From NCBI GenBank assembly GCA_039802865.1, contig JBDRXL010000002.1, positions 39,826 to 103,825 of the forward strand: a DNA stretch of 64,000 bases, given 5' to 3'. Both the position numbers and the translations under genes were made by a program. Origin of the DNA: a candidate division WOR-3 bacterium (GTDB taxonomy: Bacteria > Hydrothermota > Hydrothermia > LBFQ01 > DSFT01). The notes under the pieces were generated by a model. The model was not told where the DNA came from. It ran no database searches and was given only the letters and a program-made list of their open reading frames with translations. Positions 1-42,656 of the stretch are shown in pieces (within the stretch, counting starts at the first letter, position 1; each line of letters starts with the position of its first letter).

Positions 1-1
1 T

Positions 2-661
2 GGCTCCGCTCCAAAATATGCAGGGCTTAATAAGGCAAATCCTTCTGGATTGTTAAATGCTGCAATTATGATGTTAGTCCATATTGGTCAAGGTGATATT
101 GCTCAATTGATTGAAAATGCATGGTTAAAAACCCTTGAAGATAAAGTTGTAACATATGATATTGCAAGAATTTTAAAAGAAAATGGTATAACTGATTATA
201 AGGAAGTTGGAACAAGGGAATTTGCAGATGCAGTAATTGAAAGACTTGGGGAAGAACCTAAAATTCTAAAACCAAGTAAGTATCCACCTATAAAAATTAA
301 AATCCCAGAAATAAGAGATGTAAGAGATACAAAATTAACATTAAGAGGTGTTGATGTATTTTTGGATGAGAGAAAATTAAAACCTTCGGAAATTGGAAAA
401 CTTCTTGAAGAAGCCCAAACAGAAAAGTTGAAGCTTGTTATGATAAGCAACAGAGGCCAAAAAGTATATCCAACTGAAATCACAGAAACTTTATTAACAG
501 ACCATTGGCGTTGTAGATTTGAATCGGATAGTGAGATTACACATAAGGATATTAGGGAATTGCTTGAAAGGATTGAAGCGAAGGGATTGAATTGGATTAA
601 GTTAGAAAACTTATATTACATAGGAGATAAGAGGGCTTACAGCTTAGGACAGGGGCAGTAA
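2..661 (+). CDS. icd: Isocitrate dehydrogenase (NADP), 3' portion; gene starts upstream of window; carries an unusual ~135-aa C-terminal extension
   Basis: In-frame from nt 2 (GSAPKYAGLNKANPSG...); C-terminal ICDH signature ...VTYDIARIL...EFADAVIERL matches the E. coli/Bacillus ICDH C-terminus; the ORF continues ~135 aa past the usual end. Confidence 0.8.
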   Translation, partial: GSAPKYAGLNKANPSGLLNAAIMMLVHIGQGDIAQLIENAWLKTLEDKVVTYDIARILKENGITDYKEVGTREFADAVIERLGEEPKILKPSKYPPIKIKIPEIRDVRDTKLTLRGVDVFLDERKLKPSEIGKLLEEAQTEKLKLVMISNRGQKVYPTEITETLLTDHWRCRFESDSEITHKDIRELLERIEAKGLNWIKLENLYYIGDKRAYSLGQGQ

Positions 662-846
662 TATTAAGTTTTATTTTCGTCAGGTCTTTCTTGAACAAAC
701 CTAAGCATCTCGTAAAGTATGGATTTTAACGGAAAAATATATTCTTTATAGTTCCTACTTATAGTCAGGAATCCTATCTTTTAAAAACCCCAGCTTAAAG
801 GCTCCTTCAAATACAAAACCCAATAAACTATGAAACTCTCTTATCT

Positions 847-1993
<1,147 letters not shown>

Positions 1994-2030
1994 AGTTTTG
2001 AAATTTTAAAGGATATAGTAATTAAAGCTT

Positions 2031-2699
2031 TCATCTTGTTAACTTTTTGAAAGTTTCAAGTAATTTTTCAATTGTTTTAACCTTGTTACTCTCTTCAAGC
2101 CTTTTATTAGTAATTACAAATGTACCATCGGTATCAACCTCGGCAATAGCCCTTCCTTTTTTTGCCGGCTTTTTTAAAGTCAGATCTCCATCCTCGTCTA
2201 AGGTTACAAAGAAAACTCTTATATTAGCAGTAGTAGGGCTAGCTTTAAGCTTAACATTCCAATAGCCCGTTTGTGCAATTCTTTCTCTTAAAGTTGCTTT
2301 TGAAGATATAATAGCAATTGGTTTACACTTTTTAGGCTCATAAACAACCAAATCGGCATCTGGCAAATGCATTCCGAACTCACCAAAATCTACTACACCA
2401 AGTTTGTTATCCGCTTTTTCTAATTTTGATCCCTTTATTACCTCAAACCCTATTTTTCTTAACTCTTCCACTATATAATCCAGGATAACGTCTTCTAACA
2501 ATTTTCCTTTAAAAGGCTTCCAAGATTGTTCTGGGTCCTTTATTCCAAATTTTACTATTTCCTTTACATATCTTTGTCTTATTTCTTTAAGTATTTTTGA
2601 AAGATTTTTCATACCTTCTTTTTTTAGCCTTTCTTTTACGTATTGTTTCAGCTTTTTTATATACTTACTTCTCTTATCTTTCATAGCTTCTCCATTCAA
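2031..2699 (-). CDS. Putative type II restriction endonuclease (PD-(D/E)xK)
   Basis: ...VDFGEFGMHLPDADLVVYEPKK... contains a D-x(n)-E-x-K nuclease core; start overlaps the stop of the upstream DNA methyltransferase (translational coupling); no other recognisable family. Confidence 0.5.
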   Translation of the reverse strand: MNGEAMKDKRSKYIKKLKQYVKERLKKEGMKNLSKILKEIRQRYVKEIVKFGIKDPEQSWKPFKGKLLEDVILDYIVEELRKIGFEVIKGSKLEKADNKLGVVDFGEFGMHLPDADLVVYEPKKCKPIAIISSKATLRERIAQTGYWNVKLKASPTTANIRVFFVTLDEDGDLTLKKPAKKGRAIAEVDTDGTFVITNKRLEESNKVKTIEKLLETFKKLTR

Positions 2700-3813
2700 T
2701 TTTCAAATTACCAAAATTCTGTTTTTTATGTTCTTTTTTTACAATTATCAGATATTTAAATCCTCTAAGATAGAAGTTGTGTTGAATAGCTTTACTGTGC
2801 CAGAAAGGTGTATTTGAAGATTGATTGCGCCTTACAACGCAGATTATATCAACCGGTTGAAAATATTTCGTAAGTCTTTCATAAACTTTAAAACCCACAG
2901 GTATAAAAGTTTTTTTTGCCCACTGATCACCTATAAGCCAGGCTAAAACCTTGCCGTATTTCAAAATCCTATAACATTCTTGCATAACCTTTTCAAGTTC
3001 ATCATAAAATTTTTCATCACTTGCAGGGATATTACCTATATTAAGTGGATGCTCATTATACTTTATATTATCTCCATAAGGAGAGTCTATAAAAATCATA
3101 TCAACAGAATTATCTTTAAGAGGTAATTTCCTTGCATCTGCTTGAATAATATCTGGTCTGGTTGGGACTATATCAAATGCTATTACTCTTCTCCTTTCTT
3201 CCTTACAAACATCAATTGTAGTCCCTGAACCAGCCATAGGATCGCATACTAAATCATTAGGTTCTGTATATCTGTGAATTAAATTATATATTATGAAGGC
3301 TGGGGTCACACCTGGATATTTATTGTTACCTTTTGGTTTATCTCCGTAACTCTGTGTTGGAAAATCCCAGAGTGTAGTTGAAAAAATTGGAGGTCTAAAA
3401 TTTTTTTCAACAAGACCACTTATATTCTTACTTAATGTCAAATTCTTATTTTCCAAAATTTTAGAAAGTACTTCTACCCCCCTCTCAGATAATATATCTC
3501 TCCAAGAAATTTTTAATTTTCTAAAAACAATACTTGCATTATTTAACTTCTTTATTTCTGTTTTTGGTTGCACTTTTACAAAATAAGGATATCTTCCATT
3601 AAAAAGTGGAATTGAGTTATCATATTGTCCATCAGTCGTAGATATGAATGTTCCATAAAGTATGTCTGTATCTATATTATATAAGAAGACGAAGTCATCT
3701 TTTCTTATTGCAAGCACCTTATAACCATAAACTTTATTTGTCGCAAAAATTAAATTATCAAGCATTTCTTTTTCACTTTTTTTAGTGCAAGCGAATATAA
3801 AACCTCTCCTCAT
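2674..3813 (-). CDS. DNA (amino) methyltransferase with N-terminal DCD/YTH-like PUA-fold domain
   Basis: Motif I region YPGVTPAFIIYNLIHRYTEPNDLVCDPMAGSGTTIDVC resembles the C-terminal block of N6_N4 methylases; motif IV FIDSPYGDNIKY lies 43 aa downstream. N-terminal ~130 aa (GFIFAC...VFLYNIDTDILYGTFISTTDGQYDNSIP...YPYFVKVQ) matches the DCD/YTH PUA-like pattern. Confidence 0.65.
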   Translation of the reverse strand: MRRGFIFACTKKSEKEMLDNLIFATNKVYGYKVLAIRKDDFVFLYNIDTDILYGTFISTTDGQYDNSIPLFNGRYPYFVKVQPKTEIKKLNNASIVFRKLKISWRDILSERGVEVLSKILENKNLTLSKNISGLVEKNFRPPIFSTTLWDFPTQSYGDKPKGNNKYPGVTPAFIIYNLIHRYTEPNDLVCDPMAGSGTTIDVCKEERRRVIAFDIVPTRPDIIQADARKLPLKDNSVDMIFIDSPYGDNIKYNEHPLNIGNIPASDEKFYDELEKVMQECYRILKYGKVLAWLIGDQWAKKTFIPVGFKVYERLTKYFQPVDIICVVRRNQSSNTPFWHSKAIQHNFYLRGFKYLIIVKKEHKKQNFGNLKIEWRSYER

Positions 3814-4952
3814 ATTTTTGAAAACCTCTCAATTAACTCATAATAATAATTTTCAATCTCTTTACTAACCGCTTCCCAACTATATTTTTTAATAACAATA
3901 TCATAAGCATTTTCAACTAATCTATTTGCTAAATTTTTATTTCTTAAAAGCATTATAATTTTACTTGCTAAATCCTTATAGTTTTCATTTTCAAATAGAA
4001 TTCCATTTACCTCATTTTGAATAACTTGTTTATAACCTTCTATATTTGATGCAATAACAGGAATTTTTGAAGCCATTGCTTCAAGCAAAACAATACCAAA
4101 ACTTTCTTTTTCAGTAGCAGGTGATACAAAAATATCACAACTTACATAATACTTTGGAAGCTCATTATATCCAACTTTACCCACAAAAATAACTTTATCT
4201 TCTATATTTTTATTTAAATACTGCTCATATAAAAGCTTAAATGGACCATCTCCTACAACTATTAATTTAACATCTGAAATAAACTTTACAACCTCATTTA
4301 AAGCCAATAATAAATACTTTAATCCTTTTCTTGGCTCAATTCTTCCAACAAATAGAATTTTCTTTGAATTATCTTCCAAAAGCCAAGGAATTTTTTCATT
4401 ATCAGGTTTAAAGCGATTGACATCTACACCATTTGGAATAATTCTATATTCTCCATCAAAATACTTAATAATACTCCTTTTGGCAACTTCTGAAACCGCA
4501 ATTTTACCGTGAAGCTTTTTAAAATAATTCTCTAAATATCCCTTAAAAATTTTATAAAGTAGCATTTCATCATGTGCTGCATGAAATGTAGCAACATTAA
4601 TAGATTTAGAATACTTTAAGGACAAAATTGGAAGAACTGGTGCTATTGGTCCGTGAATATGAATAATATCATAATTATTTTTTTGAATAATATCTTTTAC
4701 AAGTTTGTTTAATTTTGCTGAAATAGTAATCGGTGCCATTGATTTATTCATAGGAATTTTAAAAGCTCTTCCTACCCTTATAACATAATCTGGATCCTTA
4801 TAATCAATACCAGAACTAAAATTTGCTGTTAAGATATAAGTTAAATGTCCCCTCTTTCTTAAATACTTTGCTAAACTATCTATATGCTCACTAATTCCAC
4901 CTGGATGTGGATAAAACACATCTGAAACAAATAAAATTTTTAAATTTTTCAT
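3810..4952 (-). CDS. Glycosyltransferase family 4
   Basis: GT4 fold signature (N-terminal HPGGISEH, C-terminal E...FGIVLLEAMA motif). Confidence 0.8.
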   Translation of the reverse strand: MKNLKILFVSDVFYPHPGGISEHIDSLAKYLRKRGHLTYILTANFSSGIDYKDPDYVIRVGRAFKIPMNKSMAPITISAKLNKLVKDIIQKNNYDIIHIHGPIAPVLPILSLKYSKSINVATFHAAHDEMLLYKIFKGYLENYFKKLHGKIAVSEVAKRSIIKYFDGEYRIIPNGVDVNRFKPDNEKIPWLLEDNSKKILFVGRIEPRKGLKYLLLALNEVVKFISDVKLIVVGDGPFKLLYEQYLNKNIEDKVIFVGKVGYNELPKYYVSCDIFVSPATEKESFGIVLLEAMASKIPVIASNIEGYKQVIQNEVNGILFENENYKDLASKIIMLLRNKNLANRLVENAYDIVIKKYSWEAVSKEIENYYYELIERFSKI

Positions 4953-5785
4953 TTTCCTCTACTTGCTAAAATAAATCCAACAATTCCAATTATAATAGCA
5001 ATGATTGAAAATATATGAGCTATTCTAATGCCCAAAAATGTATCTGTATCAAATCTTTGAAATTCAATAAAAAATCTAATAATTCCATAATTTAAAATAT
5101 ATAGTGAAAGAATTTGACCATCATTTTTATAAAATTTATCCCTAAAATAAAGCAAAAACACAAAATTAATATAATTTAATATGCTTTCATACCAAAATGT
5201 AGGATGGAAATATTCATAATTTTCAAAACCTTTAATGCGATTTTCATAAGGTATATAAATTGCCCAAGGAACATCACTTGGAGGACCATATGCTTCTTTA
5301 TTAAAGAAATTTCCCCATCTACCAATTGCTTGACCAAGTGCTAAATAAGGAATAATAATATCAGCAAGTTTTAAAAAATTCCACTTTTTAATTTTTGCAA
5401 TAATATAACCTGAAATTAATCCCCCTATTATTCCACCATAAATAGCAAGACCACCATGCCAAACTGCAATAATCTCAAATGGATTTTTTGAATAATAATC
5501 CCAATTTGGAATTACATGATAGATTCTTGCCCCAAGAATAGCAAATATAATTACCCAAAATGCAGCATCTTCAAACTCCTTATAATTTACATTTATATTA
5601 AATTTCTTAAAGTCATATCTCAAAAAGTATAGAGCTAAAACAATAGCTATTACATACATTAAACCATAATAGCGAATTTGAAGTGAGCCAATAGTAAAAA
5701 TAACGGGATTAATATTTAAATCCTTTAATGTAAAGTATAAAACAAATTCTAAAACAAGTCCAAAAATTAAAATTAAGAGGAACAT
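4949..5785 (-). CDS. lgt: Prolipoprotein diacylglyceryl transferase
   Basis: Multi-TM protein with Lgt signature ...HPTFWYESILN... and GRWGNFFN motif. Confidence 0.85.
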   Translation of the reverse strand: MFLLILIFGLVLEFVLYFTLKDLNINPVIFTIGSLQIRYYGLMYVIAIVLALYFLRYDFKKFNINVNYKEFEDAAFWVIIFAILGARIYHVIPNWDYYSKNPFEIIAVWHGGLAIYGGIIGGLISGYIIAKIKKWNFLKLADIIIPYLALGQAIGRWGNFFNKEAYGPPSDVPWAIYIPYENRIKGFENYEYFHPTFWYESILNYINFVFLLYFRDKFYKNDGQILSLYILNYGIIRFFIEFQRFDTDTFLGIRIAHIFSIIAIIIGIVGFILASRGK

Positions 5786-5827
5786 CTCTAAAATTTTAAG
5801 GCTTAATCAACTTTAAAATTTTATTAT
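5786..5827. promoter_or_regulatory. Divergent promoter region: two back-to-back copies of the TTTAAAATTT element, each 7-8 nt from an ATG (lgt operon on - ; pgeF on +)
   Basis: + strand CTTTAAAATTTTATTAT-ATG(5828); - strand CCTTAAAATTTTAGAG-ATG(5785). Confidence 0.5.
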
Positions 5828-6457
5828 ATGTGGATTTTCAAAGATGGATATTATAAAATAGAGATAGAAAATGTTGAAATAAAAGTTTCTACAAAGTTAA
5901 TTGATGAAAATTTAATAACTTATGACACTTGGTTAAATCAAACGCATTCAGATAAAATTTACATAATTGAGAATATTGAAAATATACCAAAGGGAAATTT
6001 AGATGGTGATGGAATTATACTAAAAGTGAAAAATTTAAAAGCAAGAGTAAAAACTGCTGATTGTTATCCAGTTATTATTTTAGATATAAAAAATCAAATA
6101 GGAGGTATATTTCATATTGGTTGGAGAGGTTCATATTTAAGAATTTTGGAAAAAGCTATTAAGATATTTTTAAATAAATTTAATTCAAAAAACCTAATTG
6201 TGATATTTGGACCTGGCATTTGCTCAAATTGTTATGAAGTAAAAGAAAATTTATTTAGCTATTTTCCAAGAGAATACTTTAAATATAAGAATGGAAAGTT
6301 ATTTTTAGACTTATTAACATATAATTTAGACATTTTAAAAAGCTATGGTATAAATGATATTATTTTGCCTTTTAGTTGCACTTATGAAAATCCCATTTTA
6401 TATTCTTATAGAAGAGGAGAAAGTAGTAGAATTTATACAATTTTAGAGATTAAATAA
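5828..6457 (+). CDS. pgeF: Peptidoglycan editing factor PgeF / YfiH (DUF152, laccase-like)
   Basis: ADCYPVIILD ... HIGWRGS ... GPGICSNCYEV motifs typical of the YfiH family. Confidence 0.8.
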   Translation: MWIFKDGYYKIEIENVEIKVSTKLIDENLITYDTWLNQTHSDKIYIIENIENIPKGNLDGDGIILKVKNLKARVKTADCYPVIILDIKNQIGGIFHIGWRGSYLRILEKAIKIFLNKFNSKNLIVIFGPGICSNCYEVKENLFSYFPREYFKYKNGKLFLDLLTYNLDILKSYGINDIILPFSCTYENPILYSYRRGESSRIYTILEIK

Positions 6458-6510
6458 GGTTAAACTTGACATTTTCAGGGGTATGCTTTAAAATTTTAGA
6501 CCTTTTTGAC

Positions 6511-6583
6511 GGGCCCGTAGCTCAAGTGGCAGAGCAGCGGACTCATAATCCGTGGGTTGTAGGTTCGAGTCCTACCGGGCCCA
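6511..6583 (+). tRNA. tRNA-Met (anticodon CAU; could alternatively be a lysidine-modified tRNA-Ile2)
   Basis: Cloverleaf read by eye: acceptor GGGCCCG/CGGGCCC, D-arm GCTC...GAGC, anticodon loop CUCAUAA, T-arm GTAGGTTCGAGTCCTAC, discriminator A; no encoded CCA; TTTAAAATTT element 9 nt upstream. Confidence 0.85.
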
Positions 6584-6602
6584 TATGCTTTGGTTAATAA
6601 GT

Positions 6603-6842
6603 ATGATGATCGTTGATAAGAATATCGCTAAAATTGCAGATGGTTATTATACTTTGACAATTAAGGGTAAAGCAGATGGTGTATATGTTGCTAATGTTTT
6701 AAGAGGAAAGGCAAGTGGTAATAGCTGTGAAATCCCTCTTATGAACTTGAAATTTGATGTAGAAGGAACAGTTCAAGAATGTATATACAAACCTACAAAT
6801 AATTTAAACGAGTTTAAAGTAGTTATAAAGTATAGAAAGTAA
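6603..6842 (+). CDS. Hypothetical small protein (~79 aa; alternative start 6585)
   Basis: ORF-track start (6552, GTG) lies inside the tRNA and is rejected; first plausible in-frame ATGs are 6585 and 6603; no recognisable domain. Confidence 0.35.
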   Translation: MMIVDKNIAKIADGYYTLTIKGKADGVYVANVLRGKASGNSCEIPLMNLKFDVEGTVQECIYKPTNNLNEFKVVIKYRK

Positions 6843-6843
6843 A

Positions 6844-7944
6844 TTGCTTACCGCTGTTGAGATTGAAGCAAAAGCAAAAGAGTTAAAAAAGAGAGGATAT
6901 CCTGTAATTTCCTTAGCTATTGGTGAGCCAGATTTTGAGGTACATCAGAATATAAAGGAAGCTATAAATAGAGCAATTCTTGAAAATAAAACATATTATC
7001 CAGATCCAAAAGGTTTAATAGAATTAAGAGAAGCAATTGCAGAATATGAAACAAATAGAAAAGGTATAGATATTAGTCCTGATGAAGTATTAGTAACCGC
7101 TGGTGGAAAGCCCATTATATTTTATACTATATTTTATTTTTGTAAGCAAGATGATGAAATAATTTTATTTGAGCCTTATTATTTAGTTTATCCTTATTGG
7201 TGTAAAGCGTTAAATATAAAGTATAAGGTTATAAAATTAAATGAAGATGGAACAATTCCAAGAGATGAATTATTTAAGGTATTAAGTCCAAAAACTAGGC
7301 TTTTAATAATAAACTATCCTAATAATCCACAAGGTAGTTTAATGAATAAAGAAAATTTAGATTTATTATTGGAGGTTCTTGAAAAATTTCCAAGAATTTA
7401 CATACTTTCAGATGAAGTTTATTCAGAGCTTGTATATGAAGATAAACATATCTCTATATTTACATATAATAAAAATAGAGTGATATTGCTTGAAAGCTTT
7501 TCTAAAACATTTTGTATGACTGGTTTAAGGCTTGGATATGGGATATTTCCAAGAGAATTTGTTAAGGATTTAACTACAATGAATTCAAATTTTATAACAG
7601 GACCTTCAACACCTATTCAATATGGAGGAATTACCGCTTTAAGAGATAATGAAGTAAAAAAATATGTTCAATACATGAGAGAAGAATTTAAGAAGAGAAG
7701 GGATTTCTTATATGATGAGTTAAAAGAAAAGATTTCATTTAAGCCAAAGGGTGCATTTTATTATTTTGTAAAAGTTCCTTATGATGGGTTAGAATTTTGT
7801 AATAGAGCGTTAAATGAAAAGTATTTAGCAATAACACCAGGTATATTATTTGGAGAAAGCTTTAAAAATTATGTAAGAATATCATTTGCTAATTCTATGG
7901 AAAATTTAAAAGAAGGAATTAGAAGATTTAAAAGTCTTTTATGA
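6844..7944 (+). CDS. Class I/II pyridoxal-phosphate aminotransferase (aspartate/aromatic type), TTG start
   Basis: LAIGEPDF, NYPNNPQG, SFSKTFCMTGLRLGY (PLP-Lys) motifs. Confidence 0.8.
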   Translation: MLTAVEIEAKAKELKKRGYPVISLAIGEPDFEVHQNIKEAINRAILENKTYYPDPKGLIELREAIAEYETNRKGIDISPDEVLVTAGGKPIIFYTIFYFCKQDDEIILFEPYYLVYPYWCKALNIKYKVIKLNEDGTIPRDELFKVLSPKTRLLIINYPNNPQGSLMNKENLDLLLEVLEKFPRIYILSDEVYSELVYEDKHISIFTYNKNRVILLESFSKTFCMTGLRLGYGIFPREFVKDLTTMNSNFITGPSTPIQYGGITALRDNEVKKYVQYMREEFKKRRDFLYDELKEKISFKPKGAFYYFVKVPYDGLEFCNRALNEKYLAITPGILFGESFKNYVRISFANSMENLKEGIRRFKSLL

Positions 7945-8498
7945 AGTTAATTGCAATTACGGGAAATGCTGGAAGTGGTAAAACAACAATTTCTAACATT
8001 TTAAGAGAAAAAGGATATTTTGTAATAGATGCAGATAAAGTTGTTCATAAATTACTAGAAAGTCAAGAAATAAAAAATTTTATAAAGCAAACATTTGGTG
8101 AAGAATTCCTTGACAGAAAAAAATTGTCAGATTATTTATTTAAAAATCCTGAAAAAATGGATATATATGAAAGTTTTATTAGACAAAAAGTTATAAAAGC
8201 AATAAATGAAGAAATTCTTAAATCAAATAGTGAAATTATTTTTATAGATGCTGCCCTTGTATTTGAATATGGGCTTGAATATATGTTTGATAAAATTATA
8301 TGTGTTATTGCTGATGAAAAAAAATTAATTGAAAGACTGAAAAATAAAGGATATAGTGAAGATACTGCAAGAATGATATTATTAAGACAAATGCCCCAAA
8401 ATGAAAAAGCAAAAAGAAGTCATATTATAATTGAAAATAACGGAACAATTGAAGAATTAAAGGAAAAAGTTTTAAAACTTTTGCTCAATCTCATCTAG
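7941..8498 (+). CDS. coaE: Dephospho-CoA kinase
   Basis: MKLIAITGNAGSGKTT P-loop, typical CoaE length and layout. Confidence 0.85.
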   Translation: MKLIAITGNAGSGKTTISNILREKGYFVIDADKVVHKLLESQEIKNFIKQTFGEEFLDRKKLSDYLFKNPEKMDIYESFIRQKVIKAINEEILKSNSEIIFIDAALVFEYGLEYMFDKIICVIADEKKLIERLKNKGYSEDTARMILLRQMPQNEKAKRSHIIIENNGTIEELKEKVLKLLLNLI

Positions 8499-9917
8499 AT
8501 CAATCTCATAAATAATTCTTCTATTTAAATCATCAACATTAGGATTTTTAAGTGAAAATAGCCTTAAGATAATTTCTTCATCTGTTAAATTTGAATACTT
8601 AATAGCATTTTCAACAATTGCATTAATAAAATTTTCCAGTTTTAAAAAATGCTCCCTTCTTAGAAAAATACTAATTATTTGCTCTAAATCTTCATAACTA
8701 ATATTCTCAATAATATCAGGAATACCATCTATTAAAATTTCTTTCTCTTTTAAATTTACACTAAATCCATATAATTTTAAAATTTTTATATTTTCATCAG
8801 AAATTTGGAATTTGAAAACATAGGGAAATGCAAGCATTTGAGTTTTATATTGCTTATTTAATAACTTTTGAATATAAATTTTCCTAAGAGCTCTTTCTCT
8901 ATGAATAATAAGTAATTTGTTTTTTGAGATAGTGGTTATAAATTTAGGTTGGGGTTTTTGCTCAATTTTTGAAATTTGAACAATTTTAGGCTTTATTTTA
9001 ACTTGAACATTATCCTTTAAGAAATTTTTAATTTCATCATAGATATTTAAATTTTTTGAGAATTTAACTTCTAACTTCTTAGGATGCACATTTATATCAA
9101 TATCTTTTGGATTTACTTCAATAAAAACGATATAATTTTTTATGTTAGACTTGCTTAATATCTGACTAATTTTGCTATCGAAAACTGGTCTTTTATTTAC
9201 AAAAATTCTATTTTCATCTATTTTATCAAATATGTAAAATTCTACTGAAAAATCCGATGTTCTTAAAATTTTCTTTTGAAAATCTCCAAATATATTTTTT
9301 ATTCTCTCTTCCCTTGAAGAAGCCTTTTCAAAAATTAACTTCTTATTTGAAATTTCAACCTTAAATGTTATATTTTCAAATGCCAATACATAATTTAAAA
9401 TTGTTCTTTTAATTTTTTTAACTTCACTTCTTGAACTTAAAATAAAATTTCTCCTTATAGGGACATTAAAAAATATCTCTTTTACCAAAACTATTGTTCC
9501 CTTTTGGCAATGACAATTTCTAAAATCTACTAATTTTCCTGCTTCAAATATAGCTTCATATCCTTCTATTCCATCAATACTACTTCTTATTATTAACTTT
9601 GAAACACTTGAAATAGAATATAATGCTTCTCCTCTAAATCCAAATGTTTTCAAATTATAAATATCTTCAAATGAAAACAATTTACTTGTATAATGCTTTT
9701 TTGCTACATTAACAAGGTCTTCCTTTGAAATACCTTCACCATTATCTTTAACTTTTATAAAATTTAATCCTTTACCTCTTACTTGAATAACAATTTCATT
9801 AGCATTAGCATCAATAGAATTTTCTATCAATTCCTTTATAACATCACTTGGACTATTTATAACTTCGCCAGCAGAAATTTTACTTATTACATTATCTGAT
9901 AATTTTTTAATTTTCAT
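8472..9917 (-). CDS. mutL: DNA mismatch repair protein MutL
   Basis: GHKL ATPase N-terminus (ISAGEVI...ELIENSIDANA...DNGEGI); most likely start is the ATG at 9917 (MKIKKLSDN...), not the upstream GTG. Confidence 0.85.
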   Translation of the reverse strand: MKIKKLSDNVISKISAGEVINSPSDVIKELIENSIDANANEIVIQVRGKGLNFIKVKDNGEGISKEDLVNVAKKHYTSKLFSFEDIYNLKTFGFRGEALYSISSVSKLIIRSSIDGIEGYEAIFEAGKLVDFRNCHCQKGTIVLVKEIFFNVPIRRNFILSSRSEVKKIKRTILNYVLAFENITFKVEISNKKLIFEKASSREERIKNIFGDFQKKILRTSDFSVEFYIFDKIDENRIFVNKRPVFDSKISQILSKSNIKNYIVFIEVNPKDIDINVHPKKLEVKFSKNLNIYDEIKNFLKDNVQVKIKPKIVQISKIEQKPQPKFITTISKNKLLIIHRERALRKIYIQKLLNKQYKTQMLAFPYVFKFQISDENIKILKLYGFSVNLKEKEILIDGIPDIIENISYEDLEQIISIFLRREHFLKLENFINAIVENAIKYSNLTDEEIILRLFSLKNPNVDDLNRRIIYEIDLDEIEQKF

Positions 9918-9944
9918 AAGACGCCCCACCAGAAGGTGGGGATA

Positions 9945-11168
9945 TTATTTCTTTAAGAAAAATTTTAAAACTTCTGCAATTTCATTATATACATATTGAT
10001 TATGTGTTGTAGGGAATTTAAATGGATCAGTTGAGCCATCTAATACTTTATAAGAAATATACTCGTTTGGGTTCTTACCTTTGCTTTGATAACGCCCTTT
10101 CATAACATCTACAATAATACTATCCATTTTATAAATAACTTGTTCCAATGGATCACCATTTCCTGTTGAAATATAATATTTTATACCTTTTTCAATAATA
10201 CTATCAGCATCAGGAGCTATACCGAAGAAAAGTAAAGGATCTTTTAAAAGCCAAATATTACTTAATACACTACTATTAACACTATTTAAATCCTTATAAA
10301 CGGGCAATCTAAATCCTGCACAATTTGAACCAATTTGAGCGGTTATATAGGTATATTTTATACTATCTGGATGTAAGAAGTTAGCACAATTATCAAATTT
10401 AGGACTAAATGCTGCCGAAAGAGCTACTATAAATGTTGTAAATGTTTTTCCAACACCAAGAGTGCTAGCTAAGGAATCAAAAGTTAATGGAAGGCGATTA
10501 CCAAAATCACTATTTTCACTCTTTAAAACTTGAAGGACAGCTTGTTGGGCTTGTGCATCAGTAAATATGGCAAATCCAAGAGGGCCACTTATTGAAGCAA
10601 CTTTATTGAACAAATCATATCTTGCAATAGATAACCAAACTGAACCATAACCACCCATAGAATAACCAGCTATATATCTTTGACCATTGAGCTTGCTTTT
10701 GGATATTATAGAATTTTCAACTTGTGGAATAACCTCTTCAATTATATAATCTTGATATTTCCCATAAACATTAATATTGTTAGCTATATCAACAGAATTT
10801 ACATAAAAACTTCCTCCAAATGGATTCTTACCATTTACAAATACTAAAATAGCAGGATTTATTTCTCCTTTTGCTACAAGATAACTCATTATAGTTCCGA
10901 CATCATAAACAGACCTATAATATGTATAATCTCCACCAAAAGGATGTAAAAAGTAAATTATAGGATATTTAACTGTTGTATCTTGAACATCATAATTCGC
11001 AGGATAATATATTATAACCTTTGATGCAAAATTGGGGTCAGTAATTTTGCCTGATGTACTAATAGCATATTCAGTATAATATCCCTTATCAAACGTAAAT
11101 TCATTATCCTTTGCCTTACAAGCTATTATAGAAAATAAAAGAAATCCAGTTAAAATTGACCTCTTCAT
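9945..11168 (-). CDS. Alpha/beta-hydrolase esterase lipoprotein (CE1/esterase family)
   Basis: Lipoprotein signal MKRSILTGFLLFSIIAC; nucleophile elbow GYSMGGYGS; GGAGG RBS. Confidence 0.7.
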   Translation of the reverse strand: MKRSILTGFLLFSIIACKAKDNEFTFDKGYYTEYAISTSGKITDPNFASKVIIYYPANYDVQDTTVKYPIIYFLHPFGGDYTYYRSVYDVGTIMSYLVAKGEINPAILVFVNGKNPFGGSFYVNSVDIANNINVYGKYQDYIIEEVIPQVENSIISKSKLNGQRYIAGYSMGGYGSVWLSIARYDLFNKVASISGPLGFAIFTDAQAQQAVLQVLKSENSDFGNRLPLTFDSLASTLGVGKTFTTFIVALSAAFSPKFDNCANFLHPDSIKYTYITAQIGSNCAGFRLPVYKDLNSVNSSVLSNIWLLKDPLLFFGIAPDADSIIEKGIKYYISTGNGDPLEQVIYKMDSIIVDVMKGRYQSKGKNPNEYISYKVLDGSTDPFKFPTTHNQYVYNEIAEVLKFFLKK

Positions 11169-11182
11169 TTCTTTACCTCCTT

Positions 11183-12571
11183 TTAAAATTTATAATTTAT
11201 ACCAAAACCGACTGCAAATAATGAAAATCTATATTCACCAGGAAGGTTATGTGATTTAAGTGGGTTATAATCAGTATTACTTATAGTTTTCTTTGGAAGT
11301 ATAAAGTATTCAAAATTAAAGTCATAAGAGAAATTATTATATTCTCTTGAAAATCCAGCAGTTAATTGAATTTTATTGCCAGGGTCAGGAATTAAAGGAT
11401 TAAATGTAGAATCGGGTATTGGGCTTTGATCAAATGCAAAACCAAATCTCAAAGGTAAATTACTCTTAAATCTATATTCAATTCCCATACCAAATTTAAA
11501 TGTGCTTTTCCAACCTTGAACAAATTCCTCTTCTGATGGTAAGAATTTTCCAAGTAAAGGATCACCTGTTTGATTAGCACTATCAATACTAAGTATAATT
11601 TCATCAAATGTGCTCCAATTTTGATATTGGAAAAATACAGCACTTAATAATTTTTCATTAAATTTATAGCTTATTCCAAAATCTGTAATAATAGGTAGTT
11701 TTAATTGGGCACTACCACTTGCTTTTGAATTTGAAATTCCACCTAAGAAAATAGGATTATTAGACATTTTATAATAATAATCACTCTTAGGTAAATATGC
11801 ATTTGCTTCAATATTACCCTTTAATGTTGGACTTGAATTAAATCTTAAAGCCCAAGCAAAAGATAATTTACTTAATTCATATTTTAAACCCAAATTAGCA
11901 ACAAATCCAAACCCAGTTCCTGTTAATTTAACATCAACAGGAATTAAAGAATAGGGATATCCCAAATCTGGAGATCCATCTTTATTACCATCTAATATAG
12001 CAAAATTAACTTTCCTTAATAATATAGATGTTCTTGAAAGACCAAGTGAGATACCAACAGATAAACTCGAAAACTTCCTTGCATAGCCTCCTACAATATT
12101 TAAAACTTCAATTGAGCTTTCATGGTCTATTTTTGGATAATTGTCAATTCCATCATCCCTATAACCAATTGGAAGAGAATACAAATCCCATTTAGCTCCA
12201 AGCCCAAAAGGAACATATAAACCAAATGCAAATACATTTTCCTTATATGGTAATACAAAACCAAAAGCAGGAATTAAAAAGCTTTGTTGAGTGTTAATTG
12301 GATAATTCTTTAATGAAAAAGGACCATCCATACCAATTATACCTGTTTGGGTTGTAGCATCACCAAAAGTTCCTATTACATTAGTATATATCCCAATTTG
12401 TTTGGAGGCGCCTGTAAGTCCAGCAGGATTCCAATAGATTGCTGTCCAATCACTTACAAGAGATACATAAGAGCCTCCTAAACTTAAAGCTTTTCCTCCA
12501 ATCCCTGAAAGGGCAAAACCGCCTGCCATTGATGAAACTGGTAAAATTAATATCAAGAGAAGTTTCCTCAT
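11183..12571 (-). CDS. Outer-membrane beta-barrel transporter, FadL/TodX-like
   Basis: Signal peptide, alternating amphipathic beta-strand pattern, C-terminal ...GFGINYKF; leaderless-type promoter element upstream. Confidence 0.6.
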   Translation of the reverse strand: MRKLLLILILPVSSMAGGFALSGIGGKALSLGGSYVSLVSDWTAIYWNPAGLTGASKQIGIYTNVIGTFGDATTQTGIIGMDGPFSLKNYPINTQQSFLIPAFGFVLPYKENVFAFGLYVPFGLGAKWDLYSLPIGYRDDGIDNYPKIDHESSIEVLNIVGGYARKFSSLSVGISLGLSRTSILLRKVNFAILDGNKDGSPDLGYPYSLIPVDVKLTGTGFGFVANLGLKYELSKLSFAWALRFNSSPTLKGNIEANAYLPKSDYYYKMSNNPIFLGGISNSKASGSAQLKLPIITDFGISYKFNEKLLSAVFFQYQNWSTFDEIILSIDSANQTGDPLLGKFLPSEEEFVQGWKSTFKFGMGIEYRFKSNLPLRFGFAFDQSPIPDSTFNPLIPDPGNKIQLTAGFSREYNNFSYDFNFEYFILPKKTISNTDYNPLKSHNLPGEYRFSLFAVGFGINYKF

Positions 12572-12611
12572 AGTCCAAAAGTTTAAAGTATAAAATTCAA
12601 TTTTTTTGAAA

Positions 12612-12627
12612 CTTTAAAATTTTCAGT
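12612..12627 (+). promoter_or_regulatory. CTTTAAAATTT element 7 nt upstream of pdxS ATG
   Basis: AACTTTAAAATTTTCAGT-ATG(12628); no SD. Confidence 0.45.
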
Positions 12628-13512
12628 ATGCTCTTTAATGAAAGTTGGCAGGTAAAGGTTGGATTTGCAAAAATGCTAAAAGGTGGGGTAATAATGGATG
12701 TTACAACACCTGAGCAAGCAAAAATAGCTGAAAGAGCGGGTGCAGTTGCGGTAATGGCACTTGAAAGAGTCCCAGCAGATATTAGAAAGGAAGGTGGGGT
12801 TGCAAGAATGGCGGACCCTGAAATAATTCTTAGAATAATGGATGCGGTTAGTATTCCAGTTATGGCAAAGGTAAGAATTGGACATTTCGTAGAAGCACAA
12901 ATTTTACAAGAGTTAGGTGTTGATTTTATTGATGAAAGTGAAGTGCTTACACCTGCAGATGAAGAAAATCACATAAATAAACATGAATTTATAGTTCCAT
13001 TTGTATGTGGAGCAAGAGATTTAGGAGAAGCTTTAAGAAGAATTAGTGAAGGAGCAGCACTTATTAGGACAAAGGGCGAAGCAGGAACAGGTAATGTAGT
13101 AGAAGCGGTTAGACATATGCGCTTAATCCAAAGACAAATATCTGAAATAAAAGCTTTAAGAGAAGATGAATTGTTTAAAAAAGCAAAAGAGCTAAAAGTT
13201 GATTACATGTTAGTAAGATATATCTGGGAAAATGGAAAATTGCCAGTGCCTAATTTTGCTGCTGGTGGCATTGCAACACCTGCTGATGCAGCATTAATGA
13301 TGCAACTTGGTGCAGAAGCGGTATTTGTAGGAAGCGGTATATTTAAATCTTCAAATCCAGAAAAGTATGCTCATGCTATTGTTGAAGCGGTTGCTTATTA
13401 TGATAATCCAAAAGTTTTAGCAAGAATTTCAAGAAATCTTGGAGAACCTATGAGAGGCATAGATGTTAGTAAATTAAAAGAAGAAGAGCTTTTACAAACA
13501 AGGGGAAATTAA
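12628..13512 (+). CDS. pdxS: Pyridoxal 5'-phosphate synthase lyase subunit PdxS
   Basis: Very high similarity to PdxS throughout ([10 protein letters not shown]...[23 protein letters not shown]...GIFKSSNP). Confidence 0.95.
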
Positions 13513-13525
13513 AAGGAGGTGAGAG

Positions 13526-13942
13526 TTGGAAAAAATACATACAACGAAGGGGGAACATTATATTGTAGAAGCATCAGGTTGTGATCCTGAGATTATAGGG
13601 AATGTAAAACTAATGCAAGAGATTTTAGTAAATGCAGCAAAAGAGGCAAATGCAGAAGTATGGGCGGTTTCATTTCATAGATTTCCTCCAAATGGTGTAA
13701 GTGGAGTAGTTGTAATATCAGAATCTCACCTTTCTGTTCATACATGGCCTGAATTTGGTTATGTCGCTATGGATATATATACTTGTGGGGAGCATACAGA
13801 ACCTGAAAAAGCAGTTAAATATGCAGTTGAAAAATTTAAAGCAAAACATATTCATATTACAGAAATTACAAGAGGTTTAGATGATGGGGATAGAATGTTT
13901 TATCATAGCATAGTTAGTTGGGAGGAGGGTAAAGAGATTTAA
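13526..13942 (+). CDS. speH: S-adenosylmethionine decarboxylase proenzyme (small, SpeH-type)
   Basis: HIIVEASGCDPEII ... ESHLSVHTWPE self-cleavage site motif; AGGAGG RBS. Confidence 0.85.
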   Translation: MEKIHTTKGEHYIVEASGCDPEIIGNVKLMQEILVNAAKEANAEVWAVSFHRFPPNGVSGVVVISESHLSVHTWPEFGYVAMDIYTCGEHTEPEKAVKYAVEKFKAKHIHITEITRGLDDGDRMFYHSIVSWEEGKEI

Positions 13943-13944
13943 AT

Positions 13945-14976
13945 ATGAAGTTTTTGAGAGATGACTTGCCCCAGAAATCTACGATGCCAGTATCTGAAAT
14001 TTTATATAAAGCTAAACTTGACCAAAATGAAAGTCCATTTGACATTCCAGAGGATATAAAAGAAAAAATTTTTGAAGAATTTAAAAAAGTTGAATTTAAT
14101 AGATATCCTCAACCTAAATTTTATTATGAAACAAAAGAAATTTTTTCAGAATTTCTAAATGTTGATTCAAAAAATTTTTTAATTACAGTCGGAGCAGATC
14201 AAGCAATATGGCTTGCATTTTTTTTAGCAGGAGGTAAAAATAGAAGTGCTATAATTTATGAGCCAACATATCCCATTTTTAAACATGCAGGAAAAATTAC
14301 CCAAACAAATCTACAAATAATAAATCTTGGAATAAATTATGAAATTGACCCTCTAACTTTTAAAGATCATAATATAATATGCATTGTAAATCCAAATAAT
14401 CCAACTGGAAACTTACAAAAAGAAACAGTAATAGAAAAAGCTATCGAAAGGGAAGCACTTGTTGTAATAGACGAAGCATATTTTCCATTTTCTAACATTA
14501 CTTATAAACATTTAATAAAAGAGCATAAAAATGTCTATATTATAAGAAGTTTATCAAAGAGTTTGCTTGCGGGAATTAGAATAGGTATTGTAATAGCTGA
14601 TGAAGAAATTGTAAGTATAGGAGAGGAAGTTTTAACTGCACCATATCATTTAAGCACACTTCAACTTGTAATTTTAAGAAATTTTCAATTGATAAAAAAT
14701 CATTTTGATTATTCAGTAAAAGTGGTAAATGAAGAAAAAGAGAAAATTTATAGTGCTTTTGAAAAGCTAAAAATTGATTACATTAAATCTTATACTAATT
14801 TTATTTTATTTAAGGTAGAAAATCCAAATTTTGTTTATAATGAGCTTCTTAAAAGGGGGATTAGAATTAGAAATATATCATATATGAAGGGACTTGAAAA
14901 TTGTTTGAGAGTAACAATTGGAAAGCCTTATGAGAATGAATTGTTTATAAACTCATTATTTGAAATTTTTAAGTAA
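13945..14976 (+). CDS. hisC: Histidinol-phosphate aminotransferase
   Basis: LDQNESPF, NPNNPTGN, SLSKS...GIRIG (PLP-Lys) motifs. Confidence 0.8.
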   Translation: MKFLRDDLPQKSTMPVSEILYKAKLDQNESPFDIPEDIKEKIFEEFKKVEFNRYPQPKFYYETKEIFSEFLNVDSKNFLITVGADQAIWLAFFLAGGKNRSAIIYEPTYPIFKHAGKITQTNLQIINLGINYEIDPLTFKDHNIICIVNPNNPTGNLQKETVIEKAIEREALVVIDEAYFPFSNITYKHLIKEHKNVYIIRSLSKSLLAGIRIGIVIADEEIVSIGEEVLTAPYHLSTLQLVILRNFQLIKNHFDYSVKVVNEEKEKIYSAFEKLKIDYIKSYTNFILFKVENPNFVYNELLKRGIRIRNISYMKGLENCLRVTIGKPYENELFINSLFEIFK

Positions 14977-15002
14977 TATACAAATTGCTTTAAAATTTTC
15001 AT

Positions 15003-16811
15003 ATGTTTGTTTTTATTTTAACTTGGATACATTTTAAGACAGATGCTATAATGAGTGATGGGACTCCTTTAAAGGTTTATGTATGGCTTCCAGATGATAC
15101 TGTTAATAAGAAATTTCCAGCACTTCTTGTAAGAACACCTTATGATACACTTGGACTTATAGATAGTTCAACAATTTCTCAAATAATTAGTAATAATCTT
15201 GCTTATGTAGTAAATCCTTTAAGAGGATATTGGGGAAGTGGGGGGATAAGAAGTCCATTTTTGAATGATGGATGGGGTCCAAATCAAGATGGAAAAGAGA
15301 TAGCTATTTGGATTACAAATCAAAGTTGGTCTAATGATACAATATGCACATTTGGTGGTTCTGCTCTGGGATTTGCTCAATACTTTTTAGAAGGGACGGA
15401 TTTTGATTTAACATGTGCAGTTCCTTCTGTTGCTGGATTTTCTTTATATCATGAGGTATTTTATGGTGGTGAATTTAGAAAGTTTATTGTTGAAAATTGG
15501 TTAAGTGCTGTAAATGCGACAATGTGGCTTGATACAATTGAAAAATATGCAGTTTATTCAGATAATACTCCTTGGGCATGGATAAATGGATATTCAAGAA
15601 ATTCTTATTTTAATGCACCAATGCTACATATCACAGGTTGGTTTGATGCTTTTACAGAAGGAGCAATATCAGCATTTAAATATATTAAACAATATGGAGG
15701 ACCGAGAGCAAAAAATTATCAATATCTTATAATTGGTCCTTGGATACATTATATAAATAAAGATACAGTTGGAGATTTGATATTTCCATCAAATTCAAAA
15801 ATTGATTTAAATTTATATCATTTTTATTGGTTTTTATATTGGATAAAAGGTATAGGGGATTGGAATAGTATTAAGCGAGTAAAGTTTTATTTAATGGGGG
15901 ATTTAAGCACAAATGATACTACAAGATGGAATAGATGGATTGAAACGGATGATTTTCCACCAGAAAATACTTATTATCAAACTTGGTTTTTAGTAAAAGA
16001 TTCCTTAAAATTAACATCACCTTATTATTTGAAAGATAGCTCTTATTATAATTATGATCCAAATAATCCTGTTCCTACAATTGGAGGATTTGACTTTTTT
16101 GGAATGTATAATCCAGATAGTATTTTATTTGGTCCAAGAAATTTAAATCCCATAAATAATAGAAATGATGTTTTGATATTTACATCTGATATTTTAAATC
16201 AACCCTTAGCGGTTATCGGACAGCCTATTTTAAATTTGTATGCAAGTTCCAATAGACTTGATACAGATTTTATTGTAATGTTAGCAGATGTTTATCCAGA
16301 TGGAAGAAGTATATTGATAAGTGAAGGGGTGTTAAAAGCAAGGCATAGAAATGGTTTAGATAGAGAAGACTTGTTAAATCCAAATGAAATTTATCAATTT
16401 ACAATAAAATTAAGAAATACTGCTTATGTTTTCAATCAAGGTCATAGAATAAGAATTTATATAACTTCATCTAAATATCCATCTTATGAGCCAAATCCAA
16501 ATAATGGAGGACCATTTAAGAGAAATGACCCTAATAAATTAATTGCTTTAAATAAAGTATTTACTGGTCAGGTTTATCCATCTTATATTTTACTTCCTGT
16601 AAATAATTCAATAATTGGTATAAAAGAAATTGCAAGCACTTTAAAAGTTAAATCTTGCTTAATTAAGAATAGGCAAGCGGTGTGTGATGGGTATATTCCA
16701 AATTATGTTTATGATGTTAATGGAAGAGCGCTTATGAATCAAAATTTGAAAAAGGGATTGTATTTTGTTAAAATGGATAGAAAACTGTTTAAAGTGTTTG
16801 TTCATAATTAA
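15003..16811 (+). CDS. CocE/NonD-family (X-Pro dipeptidyl-peptidase-like) hydrolase with T9SS-type C-terminal sorting domain
   Basis: Alpha/beta hydrolase N-terminal region plus C-terminal beta-sandwich; last ~70 aa ...YVYDVNGRALMNQNLKKGLYFVKMDRKLFKVFVHN fit the T9SS type-A CTD pattern. Confidence 0.65.
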   Translation: MFVFILTWIHFKTDAIMSDGTPLKVYVWLPDDTVNKKFPALLVRTPYDTLGLIDSSTISQIISNNLAYVVNPLRGYWGSGGIRSPFLNDGWGPNQDGKEIAIWITNQSWSNDTICTFGGSALGFAQYFLEGTDFDLTCAVPSVAGFSLYHEVFYGGEFRKFIVENWLSAVNATMWLDTIEKYAVYSDNTPWAWINGYSRNSYFNAPMLHITGWFDAFTEGAISAFKYIKQYGGPRAKNYQYLIIGPWIHYINKDTVGDLIFPSNSKIDLNLYHFYWFLYWIKGIGDWNSIKRVKFYLMGDLSTNDTTRWNRWIETDDFPPENTYYQTWFLVKDSLKLTSPYYLKDSSYYNYDPNNPVPTIGGFDFFGMYNPDSILFGPRNLNPINNRNDVLIFTSDILNQPLAVIGQPILNLYASSNRLDTDFIVMLADVYPDGRSILISEGVLKARHRNGLDREDLLNPNEIYQFTIKLRNTAYVFNQGHRIRIYITSSKYPSYEPNPNNGGPFKRNDPNKLIALNKVFTGQVYPSYILLPVNNSIIGIKEIASTLKVKSCLIKNRQAVCDGYIPNYVYDVNGRALMNQNLKKGLYFVKMDRKLFKVFVHN

Positions 16812-16828
16812 GCTTTAAAATTTTGCCT

Positions 16829-17488: not shown

Positions 17489-17491
17489 ACC

Positions 17492-19205: not shown

Positions 19206-19250
19206 TTGTTTTTTATCCTTTATAATTTTCGGAAAACAGGAGCTTGCTAT

Positions 19251-22675: not shown

Positions 22676-22686
22676 AATTTTCGCTT
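22669..22686 (+). promoter_or_regulatory. CTTTAAAATTT element 6 nt upstream of coxB ATG
   Basis: GCTTTAAAATTTTCGCTT-ATG(22687); no SD. Confidence 0.45.
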
Positions 22687-27509: not shown

Positions 27510-27523
27510 AACTTTAAAATTTT
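27492..27523 (+). repeat. 32-bp direct repeat, copy 1 (TGTAAAGATGTCAAATAGAACTTTAAAATTTT)
   Basis: 30/32 identical to 30009..30040; includes the promoter element. Confidence 0.85.
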
Positions 27524-29996: not shown

Positions 29997-30008
29997 TTCA
30001 CGAGATAG

Positions 30009-30040
30009 TGTAAAATTGTCAAATAGAACTTTAAAATTTT
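30009..30040 (+). repeat. 32-bp direct repeat, copy 2 (TGTAAAATTGTCAAATAGAACTTTAAAATTTT), gyrA promoter
   Basis: Duplicate of 27492..27523; ATG of gyrA 6 nt downstream. Confidence 0.85.
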
Positions 30041-35522: not shown

Positions 35523-35538
35523 AAAGAAAATTTTAAAG
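35523..35538 (-). promoter_or_regulatory. CTTTAAAATTT element 7 nt upstream of the coiled-coil gene ATG (minus strand)
   Basis: Minus strand reads GCTTTAAAATTTTCTTT-ATG(35522). Confidence 0.4.
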
Positions 35539-42630: not shown

Positions 42631-42656
42631 AGTTTCAAATTTTAAAGTGTAAGAAT
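42631..42656 (-). promoter_or_regulatory. CTTTAAAATTT element 7 nt upstream of cbaA ATG (minus strand)
   Basis: Minus strand reads CACTTTAAAATTTGAAACT-ATG(42630). Confidence 0.4.

Follow-up and report, generated by a model that had tools for sequence, protein, structure and literature searches.

Introduction

In Deinococcus-Thermus one of two alternative signals, TAnnnT or GGAG, is found within 20 nt upstream of open reading frames (ORFs), and the former has been described as a "-10-motif adjacent to ORFs" (de Groot 2014; Zhong et al. 2025, PMC12340547). It was shown experimentally for Deinococcus that this motif, located 6–7 bp before the ORF, depends on positions 1, 2 and 6, that it is sufficient without a -35 element and that a ribosome-binding site (RBS) is no substitute for it (PMC12340547). 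The same layout has been reported for TA-led leaderless genes (Zheng et al. 2011, PMC3160421) and for group C of GeneMarkS-2, in which a Pribnow box lies 6–8 nt before first genes, the remaining genes being preceded by a Shine-Dalgarno sequence (SD). Many Actinobacteria and Deinococcus-Thermus fall into group C, which is rarely encountered outside these two groups; 90% of the FCB-group genomes belong to group B (PMC6028130). Here we analyze a recurrent block of 11–13 conserved bases, referred to as the box, which precedes the start codons of operon-first genes in a stretch of 64,000 nucleotides (the window) from a candidate division WOR-3 bacterium (GenBank assembly GCA_039802865.1, contig JBDRXL010000002.1, positions 39,826 to 103,825). 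An earlier reading of the same DNA, called the original prediction below, had proposed that the box is a -10-type promoter for leaderless mRNAs. NCBI currently names the WOR-3 phylum Caldifarciminota, and our literature searches for WOR-3 together with leaderless genes and for Caldifarciminota brought up no publication that connects leaderless genes with WOR-3. Our analysis indicates that the box is very probably the -10 region recognized by the housekeeping sigma-70-type factor, and that operon-first genes would give rise to leaderless or near-leaderless mRNAs which are translated without an SD.

Results

A conserved block recurs upstream of operon-first genes

The consensus core of the box is CTTTAAAATTT, which extends to [G/A]CTTTAAAATTT[T/C] when the flanks are considered; alignment of 22 sites gave [G/A]C TTTAAAATTT [T/C][A/C]. 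Exact copies of the core were found 14 times on both strands, compared with 1.47 ± 1.31 in 100 dinucleotide-preserving shuffles (largest value 6), and all 14 are located outside gene bodies. In an unbiased test of 6-mers, covering 31 nt around each of 58 ORF starts, only two signals emerged: AGGAGG (12 observed, 0.29 expected) and words belonging to the box (CTTTAA, TTTAAA, TTAAAA and TAAAAT, 17–25 observed, 2–5 expected). The degenerate pattern CTTTA[AT]A[AC]TTT matches 22 times in the window. An ORF of at least 50 aa starts 4–7 nt downstream of 15 of these matches, whereas only 7.3% of random positions are followed by such a start (binomial P = 9e-13). With these numbers the recurrence of the motif before operon-first starts is borne out, and the motif is not as frequent at random positions. 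All 19 gene coordinates given in the original prediction check out, and the gene names were confirmed by Pfam.

The remaining seven matches comprise two tRNA genes, two SD-led genes with a leader, one TolC-like gene and two matches without an evident target. At tRNA-Met and tRNA-Asn, 14 nt separate the end of the box from the tRNA, instead of the roughly 9 nt that had been proposed for tRNA-Met. For the SD-led genes at 19251 and 38287 the distance amounts to 22 and 47 nt. A TATAAT variant had been predicted before tRNA-Asn and before one leadered gene, and we found it at both (39616–39626 and 38335–38345, the latter 47 nt from its ATG).

Box orientation relative to the gene is strict, and all genes of the window lie downstream of some box on their own strand. 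Each of the four divergent junctions (5786–5827, 12572–12627, 47891–47932 and 60671–60718) contains exactly two opposed copies, and all eight flanking genes carry the box. Since these spacers measure only 42–56 bp, there is no room for further promoters or long leaders. Boxes are placed at functional boundaries (NurA/coxB, cox operon/methylase, the gene at 29355–29996/gyrA, acd/DUF2231/Lrp-C), and SD sites are found within coherent operons. In total about 20 of the 62 genes of the window carry the box. Around 19–20 of the 22 mRNA promoters (about 85–90%) are adjacent to a start codon, a share that refers to a small sample of promoters defined by the motif itself. In two cases, NurA and acd, the preceding gene terminates with the TAA of the hexamer, and several further boxes begin 0–2 nt past a stop codon.

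Box and Shine-Dalgarno sequence are mutually exclusive at start codons

No SD was detected at any of the 18 box-bearing starts, as had been predicted, compared with 26 of 42 other starts (P = 2.5e-6). The accompanying claim of a clear GGAGG at every internal gene goes too far: about 26 genes have an SD-like core, and about 14 internal genes carry neither SD nor box, and most of these overlap or abut the upstream stop codon.

The distance between hexamer and ATG is 6–9 nt with a mode of 8, rather than the 6–8 nt of the original prediction, and the first T of the hexamer lies 12–15 nt upstream of the start. The start codon begins 7 nt past the hexamer in three cases, 8 nt in five, 9 nt in seven and 10 nt in three, and any leader would therefore be 0–3 nt long. 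From studies of transcription start site (TSS) selection in E. coli, RNA polymerase is known to start usually 6–10 nt past the -10 element and to prefer a purine following a pyrimidine. The base directly before the start is T for 16 of 19 box genes but for 20 of 40 others (P = 0.02), which is consistent with the pyrimidine (-1) and purine (+1) of a TSS. Judged from this geometry, transcripts should begin at the A of the AUG or 1–3 nt earlier, a leader of 1–3 nt being as likely as none. Two genes listed in the original prediction deviate in detail: a copy is indeed present upstream of acd, but it is a weak variant (CCATAAACTTT) whose hexamer lies 9 nt from the ATG, and the WG-repeat gene at 60719 has the box 5 nt upstream, but starts with TTG and not with ATG.

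The box has the conservation pattern of a -10 element

For the 22 sites aligned on the box, TAAAAT was taken as the -10 hexamer. T-12, A-11 and T-7 are invariant in 22/22 sites, and the hexamer varies only at position -10 (TATAAT, at tRNA-Asn and the leadered genes) and at position -8 (TAAACT). Invariance at these three positions, with variation restricted to -10 and -8, is the signature of a sigma-70 -10 element. The register of the box is fixed by tRNA-Met, since a perfect TTGACA (6/6) is located 17 bp upstream of its TAAAAT; this promoter was also the top match of a generic sigma-70 pattern scan. As a whole, that scan reported 142 promoter-like sites compared with 117.5 in shuffles and is uninformative in AT-rich DNA. 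At the remaining 22 sites the best match to TTGACA at 16–18 bp averages 2.35/6, compared with 2.59 at random positions. Apart from tRNA-Met, we found no conserved upstream element in the 22–23 aligned sites and no further informative upstream column, and the promoters therefore appear to be independent of a -35 element.

An Rfam scan of the window detected the two tRNAs only, hence the box is not part of any known RNA family. Because the box also precedes tRNAs and SD-led genes with a leader, it is not a signal to the ribosome. The conservation pattern, the -35 element of tRNA-Met, the divergent junctions and the relatives described below all support the -10-type promoter reading of the original prediction.

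The box is conserved in related genomes

GC content ranges from 25 to 32% across the window and is 28% for the genome of this WOR-3 bacterium. The envelope genes lgt, FadL and TolC/AcrB identify the host as a bacterium. The top genome match of GyrA is a metagenome-assembled genome (MAG) labelled "candidate division WOR-3" (78% identity), and a protein identical to PdxS is encoded by three NCBI MAGs of one series, whose contigs match the window at 99.7–99.95% identity across about 21 kb. Strain-level MAG copies (L081–L086) share 99.6–99.95% identity with the window, and this near-identity leaves too few single-nucleotide polymorphisms for testing selection on the box.

More diverged relatives were L089 (83% nucleotide identity), L087 (FadL 68% identical, GC 25%) and L088 (FadL 54% identical, GC 39.5%). 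All three, covering 25–40% GC, retain the box in the orthologous promoters of FadL, pdxS and tRNA-Met with diverged flanks, and the orthologues agree in where the ATG lies relative to the box. The box also precedes other first genes in L089, L087, L001 and L088. Its distance to the start is 5–9 nt in the relatives, except for 11 nt at one of two L001 sites. At tRNA-Met of L087 both hexamers and their 17-bp distance are kept, with diverged spacer and tRNA leader. Unrelated loci of 25–32% GC contained no copies of the box.

Two distant WOR-3 loci, L090 (GC 38%) and L056 (GC 50%), show the arrangement TTGACA-N16/17-TAnnnT-N5-7-ATG/GTG without the CTT extension. Judged on these two loci, the start-adjacent promoter layout looks phylum-wide, and the long block without a -35 element is a specialization of a sub-clade.

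In L089 (2390–2420) the FadL orthologue was automatically called at a TTG located five codons past the box-adjacent ATG, apparently because of a GAGG in codons 2–3.

Mapped sites and neighboring features

The mapped copies of the box are listed in Table 1. Genes of the window are packed very tightly; the sigmaA gene and the 16S 3' end of this lineage are located outside it. Names confirmed by Pfam include lgt, pgeF (Cu-oxidase_4), pdxS, the FadL-like gene, the S15 peptidase (CocE-like), coxB/A/C, the DNA methylase, gyrA with an intein, cbaA (COX1), acd, gap, thiolase, gcvT, usp, the Roadblock-domain gene, YtxH, DUF2231, the Lrp/AsnC ligand-binding-domain protein, htpX (M48), WG repeats and AcrB.

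Table 1. Positions of the box and its variants in the window and their distance to the following start
Feature	Position	Strand	Downstream gene and remarks
Box CTTTAAAATTT	2001–2011	-	7 nt before ATG 1993, YtxH-like gene, followed by gap
Box CCTTAAAATTT	5791–5801	-	5 nt before lgt ATG 5785; in 42-bp divergent spacer 5786–5827
Box CTTTAAAATTT	5811–5821	+	6 nt before pgeF (Cu-oxidase_4) ATG 5828
tRNA-Met promoter	6466–6496	+	TTGACA 6466–6471, 17-bp spacer, TAAAAT 6489–6494, box 6486–6496; mature tRNA from 6511
Box CTTTAAACTTT	12578–12588	-	6 nt before FadL-like ATG 12571
Box	12612–12622	+	5 nt before pdxS ATG 12628
Box	14988–14998	+	4 nt before S15 peptidase (CocE-like) ATG 15003
Box	16813–16823	+	5 nt before ATG 16829 (Lactamase_B_3 / UPF0173); begins 1 nt past upstream stop
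TATAAT variant CTTTATAATTT	19218–19228	+	22 nt before SD-led ATG 19251 (M23 peptidase); candidate internal promoter with leader
Box	22670–22680	+	6 nt before coxB ATG 22687; TAA 22673–22675 is the NurA stop
Box	27512–27522	+	4 nt before DNA methylase ATG 27527
Box	30029–30039	+	7 nt before gyrA ATG 30047
Box	35528–35538	-	5 nt before ATG 35522 (coiled-coil / DUF3782 / PD-(D/E)XK gene)
TATAAT variant ATATGCTTTATAATTTTCAAA	38335–38345	-	47 nt before ATG 38287 with its own AGGAGG; putative leadered promoter
TATAAT variant	39616–39626	-	14 nt before mature 5' end of tRNA-Asn (39601)
Box	42637–42647	-	6 nt before cbaA (COX1) ATG 42630
Box	47904–47914	-	12 nt before ATG 47890, TolC-like gene (looks frameshifted), first of RND efflux operon
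Weak variant CCATAAACTTT	47915–47925	+	hexamer TAAACT 47918–47923, 9 nt before acd ATG 47933
Box CTTTAAACTTT	50012–50022	+	6 nt before DUF2231 ATG 50029; TAA 50015–50017 is the acd stop
Box CTTTAAACTTT	50493–50503	+	6 nt before ATG 50510 (Lrp/AsnC ligand-binding-domain protein)
Box	60675–60685	-	4 nt before htpX (M48) ATG 60670
Box GTTTAAAATTT	60703–60713	+	5 nt before TTG 60719 (WG-repeat protein); putative start codon
Box CTTTAAAATTA	62222–62232	+	7 nt before ATG 62240
Box	63212–63222	+	6 nt before ATG 63229

The promoters of the methylase and of gyrA (27490–27522 and 30007–30039, + strand) have about 33 nt in common, GTAAAnnTGTCAAATAGAACTTTAAAATTTT, which extends well beyond the box and could have arisen by duplication of a promoter module or serve as an operator common to both. 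The TolC-like gene (46747–47914, - strand) is followed in its operon by a gene for 327 aa (45767–46750) and AcrB. It contains an apparent frameshift near 47845–47850, reflecting either a pseudogene or an assembly error, and ATG 47890 opens a signal-peptide-like ORF of 14 codons in another frame than the TolC body.

tRNA-Met (6511–6583) is separated by a gap of 1 nt from ATG 6585 of a conserved 85-aa ORF which has neither SD nor box (6511–6842, + strand), and the same junction, gggcccatATG, is present in the 68%-identity relative L087 (15895–16250, - strand). Processing of the tRNA-Met 3' end would leave a near-leaderless mRNA for the genes of this ORF, an aminotransferase and coaE.

A hairpin, CCCCACC-TTCT-GGTGGGG (9924–9941, within 9917–9970, - strand), is located right after the esterase stop, with the mutL ATG at 9917 following 6 nt later. 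L087 and L089 have the same stem with a different loop (GCCT and TTCC, respectively); in L089 the hairpin is followed by TTTTT. It may act as a terminator, or as a structure sequestering its SD-like GGTGGGG arm. A box with one mismatch, TTTTAAAATTT, is present upstream of the hairpin (9960–9970). Intrinsic-terminator-like hairpins in general were not enriched in positions 1–20000 of the window (7 found, 7.8 expected).

Convergent gene pairs overlap by 4–27 nt (8472–8498, 34515–34518 and 53224–53244). Residues 127–368 of GyrA (30425–31150) constitute an intein with a LAGLIDADG homing-endonuclease domain. Between the leadered promoter upstream of 38287 and the preceding gene, about 350 nt (38346–38698) contain no convincing ORF and no Rfam match.

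Discussion

A proposed start-adjacent -10 element

The sequence-level tests that we ran favor a promoter element acting at the DNA level as -10 region over an RNA-level or a chance explanation. In the mechanism that we propose, the hexamer TAAAAT would be bound by the sigma factor, and the flanking CTT (-15 to -13) and TTT (-6 to -4) would represent lineage-specific extensions of it. These extensions probably allow the promoter to work without a -35 element, a plausible compensation. RNA polymerase would start at the AUG or 1–3 nt before, producing leaderless or near-leaderless mRNAs of operon-first genes that would be translated without SD. Downstream genes of the operon would use AGGAGG or translational coupling, and where a leader is needed, as for the tRNAs and the two SD-led genes, the same box would be placed further upstream.

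Several observations weigh against this interpretation. Near-invariance over 11 bp, with 14 identical copies among about 23 sites, exceeds what is usual for a -10 element, and a second factor may bind the extended block. The modal spacing of 8 nt, which places the A at position 9, is 1–2 nt longer than the usual 6–7 nt, suggesting that many transcripts may have a leader of 1–3 nt. The TTG adjacent to the box at 60719 is unusual for a leaderless start. The two matches without target are TATAAT variants inside genes, one antisense within 50743–51735 (51627–51637, - strand) and one just past the ATG at 63229 (63237–63247, + strand); they may be due to chance or represent internal or antisense promoters. 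Finally, twelve co-directional box sites are located only 11–50 nt past the upstream gene without a terminator-like hairpin. Considering this close spacing, the lack of terminator enrichment and the overlap of convergent genes, read-through transcripts must be produced as well, and a -10 element at the start codon does not account for the translation of SD-less ORFs on these.

Alternative explanations

The 11–13-bp block, as a whole or in its flanks, could be the operator of an abundant DNA-binding protein, such as a global regulator or nucleoid protein, that overlies a shorter -10 element. An operator of this kind would account for both the near-invariance and the quasi-palindromic sequence CTTTAAAA/TTTYAAAC, the block being near-palindromic where TAAAC follows. 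C-15 is the most informative position (2.6 bits), 14 of 22 sites are identical over 11 bp, which goes beyond TAnnnT promoters, and the methylase and gyrA promoters share their longer stretch of about 33 nt. We nevertheless consider an operator improbable, because the downstream half YAAAC is weakly conserved (0.3–0.8 bits) and the block is strictly oriented to the gene, and because its presence at essentially every transcription unit, tRNAs included, fits the basal machinery better. Extended -10 promoters also suggest that additional contacts to sigma are to be expected where a -35 element is missing.

Alternatively, the box might function at the RNA level, as a non-SD element for ribosome binding or translation enhancement similar to group B (A/U-rich, for instance bound by S1) on transcripts that start further upstream. 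It sits where an SD would be, box and SD are mutually exclusive, and many box genes are located 11–26 nt past a co-directional gene without a terminator and must therefore be present on read-through transcripts. An RNA element is very unlikely, however, to be found 14 nt before two tRNAs or 22–47 nt before two genes with their own AGGAGG, to be conserved in the manner of a -10 hexamer, or to be accompanied at tRNA-Met by a conserved -35 element at 17 bp. The divergent spacers of 42–56 bp are too short to hold other promoters. About 14 internal genes without SD also lack the box, whereas in group B every gene is preceded by the motif (PMC6028130); in contrast to group B, the box is absent from internal genes and present before tRNAs and far upstream of SD-led genes. 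In Deinococcus an RBS could not replace the equivalent motif (PMC12340547).

A third explanation, that the starts were called wrongly and the box is an ordinary -10 element followed by normal leaders and true starts further downstream, is extremely unlikely. That an automatic caller did choose a downstream TTG for the FadL orthologue of L089 speaks in its favor. We took the first start codon after a stop as the ORF start, so no upstream start is possible for the listed ORFs. Pfam domains begin within 2–8 residues of the box-adjacent ATG for pdxS, COX2_TM, YtxH and DUF2231, and the profile coordinates (residue 7 at profile position 2 in pdxS, 8 at 8 in COX2_TM, 5 at 2 in YtxH) leave no room for downstream starts. 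Within the first 20 codons of the box genes, we found no further in-frame start that is preceded by a real SD; the sole candidate, FadL 12556, falls inside the conserved signal peptide MRKLLL. The position of box and ATG relative to each other is moreover kept across orthologues.

Chance in an AT-rich genome (28% GC), where the generic sigma-70 scan is barely above shuffles, has virtually no probability as explanation, given that none of the 100 shuffles reaches the 14 exact copies, that the positional P is about 1e-12, that unrelated loci of 25–32% GC hold zero copies and that a relative of 39.5% GC retains the box.

Comparison with known promoter layouts

The -10 element proposed here most closely resembles the motif of Deinococcus-Thermus. 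Both systems use two alternative signals in the same position, keep hexamer positions 1, 2 and 6 invariant, and carry the motif at about one third of the genes (here about 20 of 62) in thermophiles or extremophiles. A -35 element merely boosts expression in Deinococcus and appears not to be needed here. In contrast to the bare TAnnnT of Deinococcus-Thermus, the WOR-3 block comprises 11–13 bp (CTTTAAAATTT) and is found at slightly longer spacing (6–9 nt, mode 8), in a genome of 28% instead of high GC and in another phylum.

With group C and the TA-led genes the window shares a Pribnow box about 10–12 nt before operon-first starts, SD sites at internal genes and one spacing window for both signals. 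However, 25–50% leaderless operons are reported for group C, compared with about 85–90% start-adjacent mRNA promoters in the window. Additional bases upstream of a hexamer with missing or weak -35 element are also known from the extended -10 (TGn) of E. coli and the -16 region of Bacillus. WOR-3 differs from these in having C-15 T-14 T-13 in place of T-15 G-14, plus a T-run from -6 to -4. The extension may be recognized by sigma region 3.0.

WOR-3 was formerly placed near the FCB group, and the original prediction had suggested a comparison with the TAnnTTTG element at -7 of that group. The Bacteroidetes sigmaA promoter (-7 TAnnTTTG, -33 TTTG; PMC9723704) likewise has TA followed by a T-run near -7. 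Kinship is not supported, since in the consensus TAAAATTT(T/C) the T-run comes one base later (TAnnnTTT) without a G, and since there is no conserved upstream TTTG as at -33 and tRNA-Met uses TTGACA-N17. Moreover, the WOR-3 genome has strong SD sites and predicted leaderless starts, whereas Flavobacteria have no SD and about 5.5% leaderless mRNAs (PMC9723704).

Given the TTTAAA core and an archaeal-looking gene set, we also considered an archaeal TATA box. Archaeal leaderless genes (group D) likewise have an A/T-rich TTTAAA box before SD-less first genes and a high leaderless share. Their TATA box, however, lies 22–26 nt from the start, whereas the hexamer begins 12–15 nt before it here and the box ends 4–7 nt before the ATG and 14 nt before tRNA 5' ends; an archaeal TSS 25 nt past the box would land inside the tRNAs. 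We rejected this reading on the basis of spacing, tRNA geometry, the bacterial envelope genes and the match to WOR-3.

Implications for WOR-3

The layout itself is already known from Deinococcus-Thermus and Actinobacteria; new are its occurrence in an uncultured thermophilic phylum and the unusually long consensus without -35 element. Unusual in the window are the near-invariance over 11 bp, the lack of a -35 element, the high start-adjacent share and the extreme compaction. Tentatively, and with more doubt than confidence, one may go further and suppose that the default expression signal of this sub-lineage has shrunk to one block of about 13 bp which needs no -35 element, makes new sigma contacts (C-15/T-14/T-13 and T-6 to T-4), is fused to the start codon and leaves more than 80% of the units leaderless. 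If so, the proportion of leaderless units would be one otherwise seen in archaea, intergenic spacers of 11–56 bp would become possible, with the hexamer even supplying the upstream stop codon, and tRNA 3' processing, as at the junction of tRNA-Met, 1 nt and ATG, might yield further leaderless mRNAs.

Our understanding of the mechanism is unchanged by these findings; their value is moderate and lies chiefly in the annotation of WOR-3 genomes and in promoter recognition. Gene callers of the Prodigal type, which expect an SD, can misplace starts in MAGs of WOR-3 (Caldifarciminota), as seen for FadL of L089. The sharply defined consensus without -35 element may be used for operon prediction and for the design of expression signals, as well as to ask how sigma recognizes the bases from -15 to -13 and from -6 to -4. 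The -10-adjacent leaderless layout, documented mainly in Actinobacteria and Deinococcus-Thermus, would thereby be extended to an uncultured thermophilic phylum.

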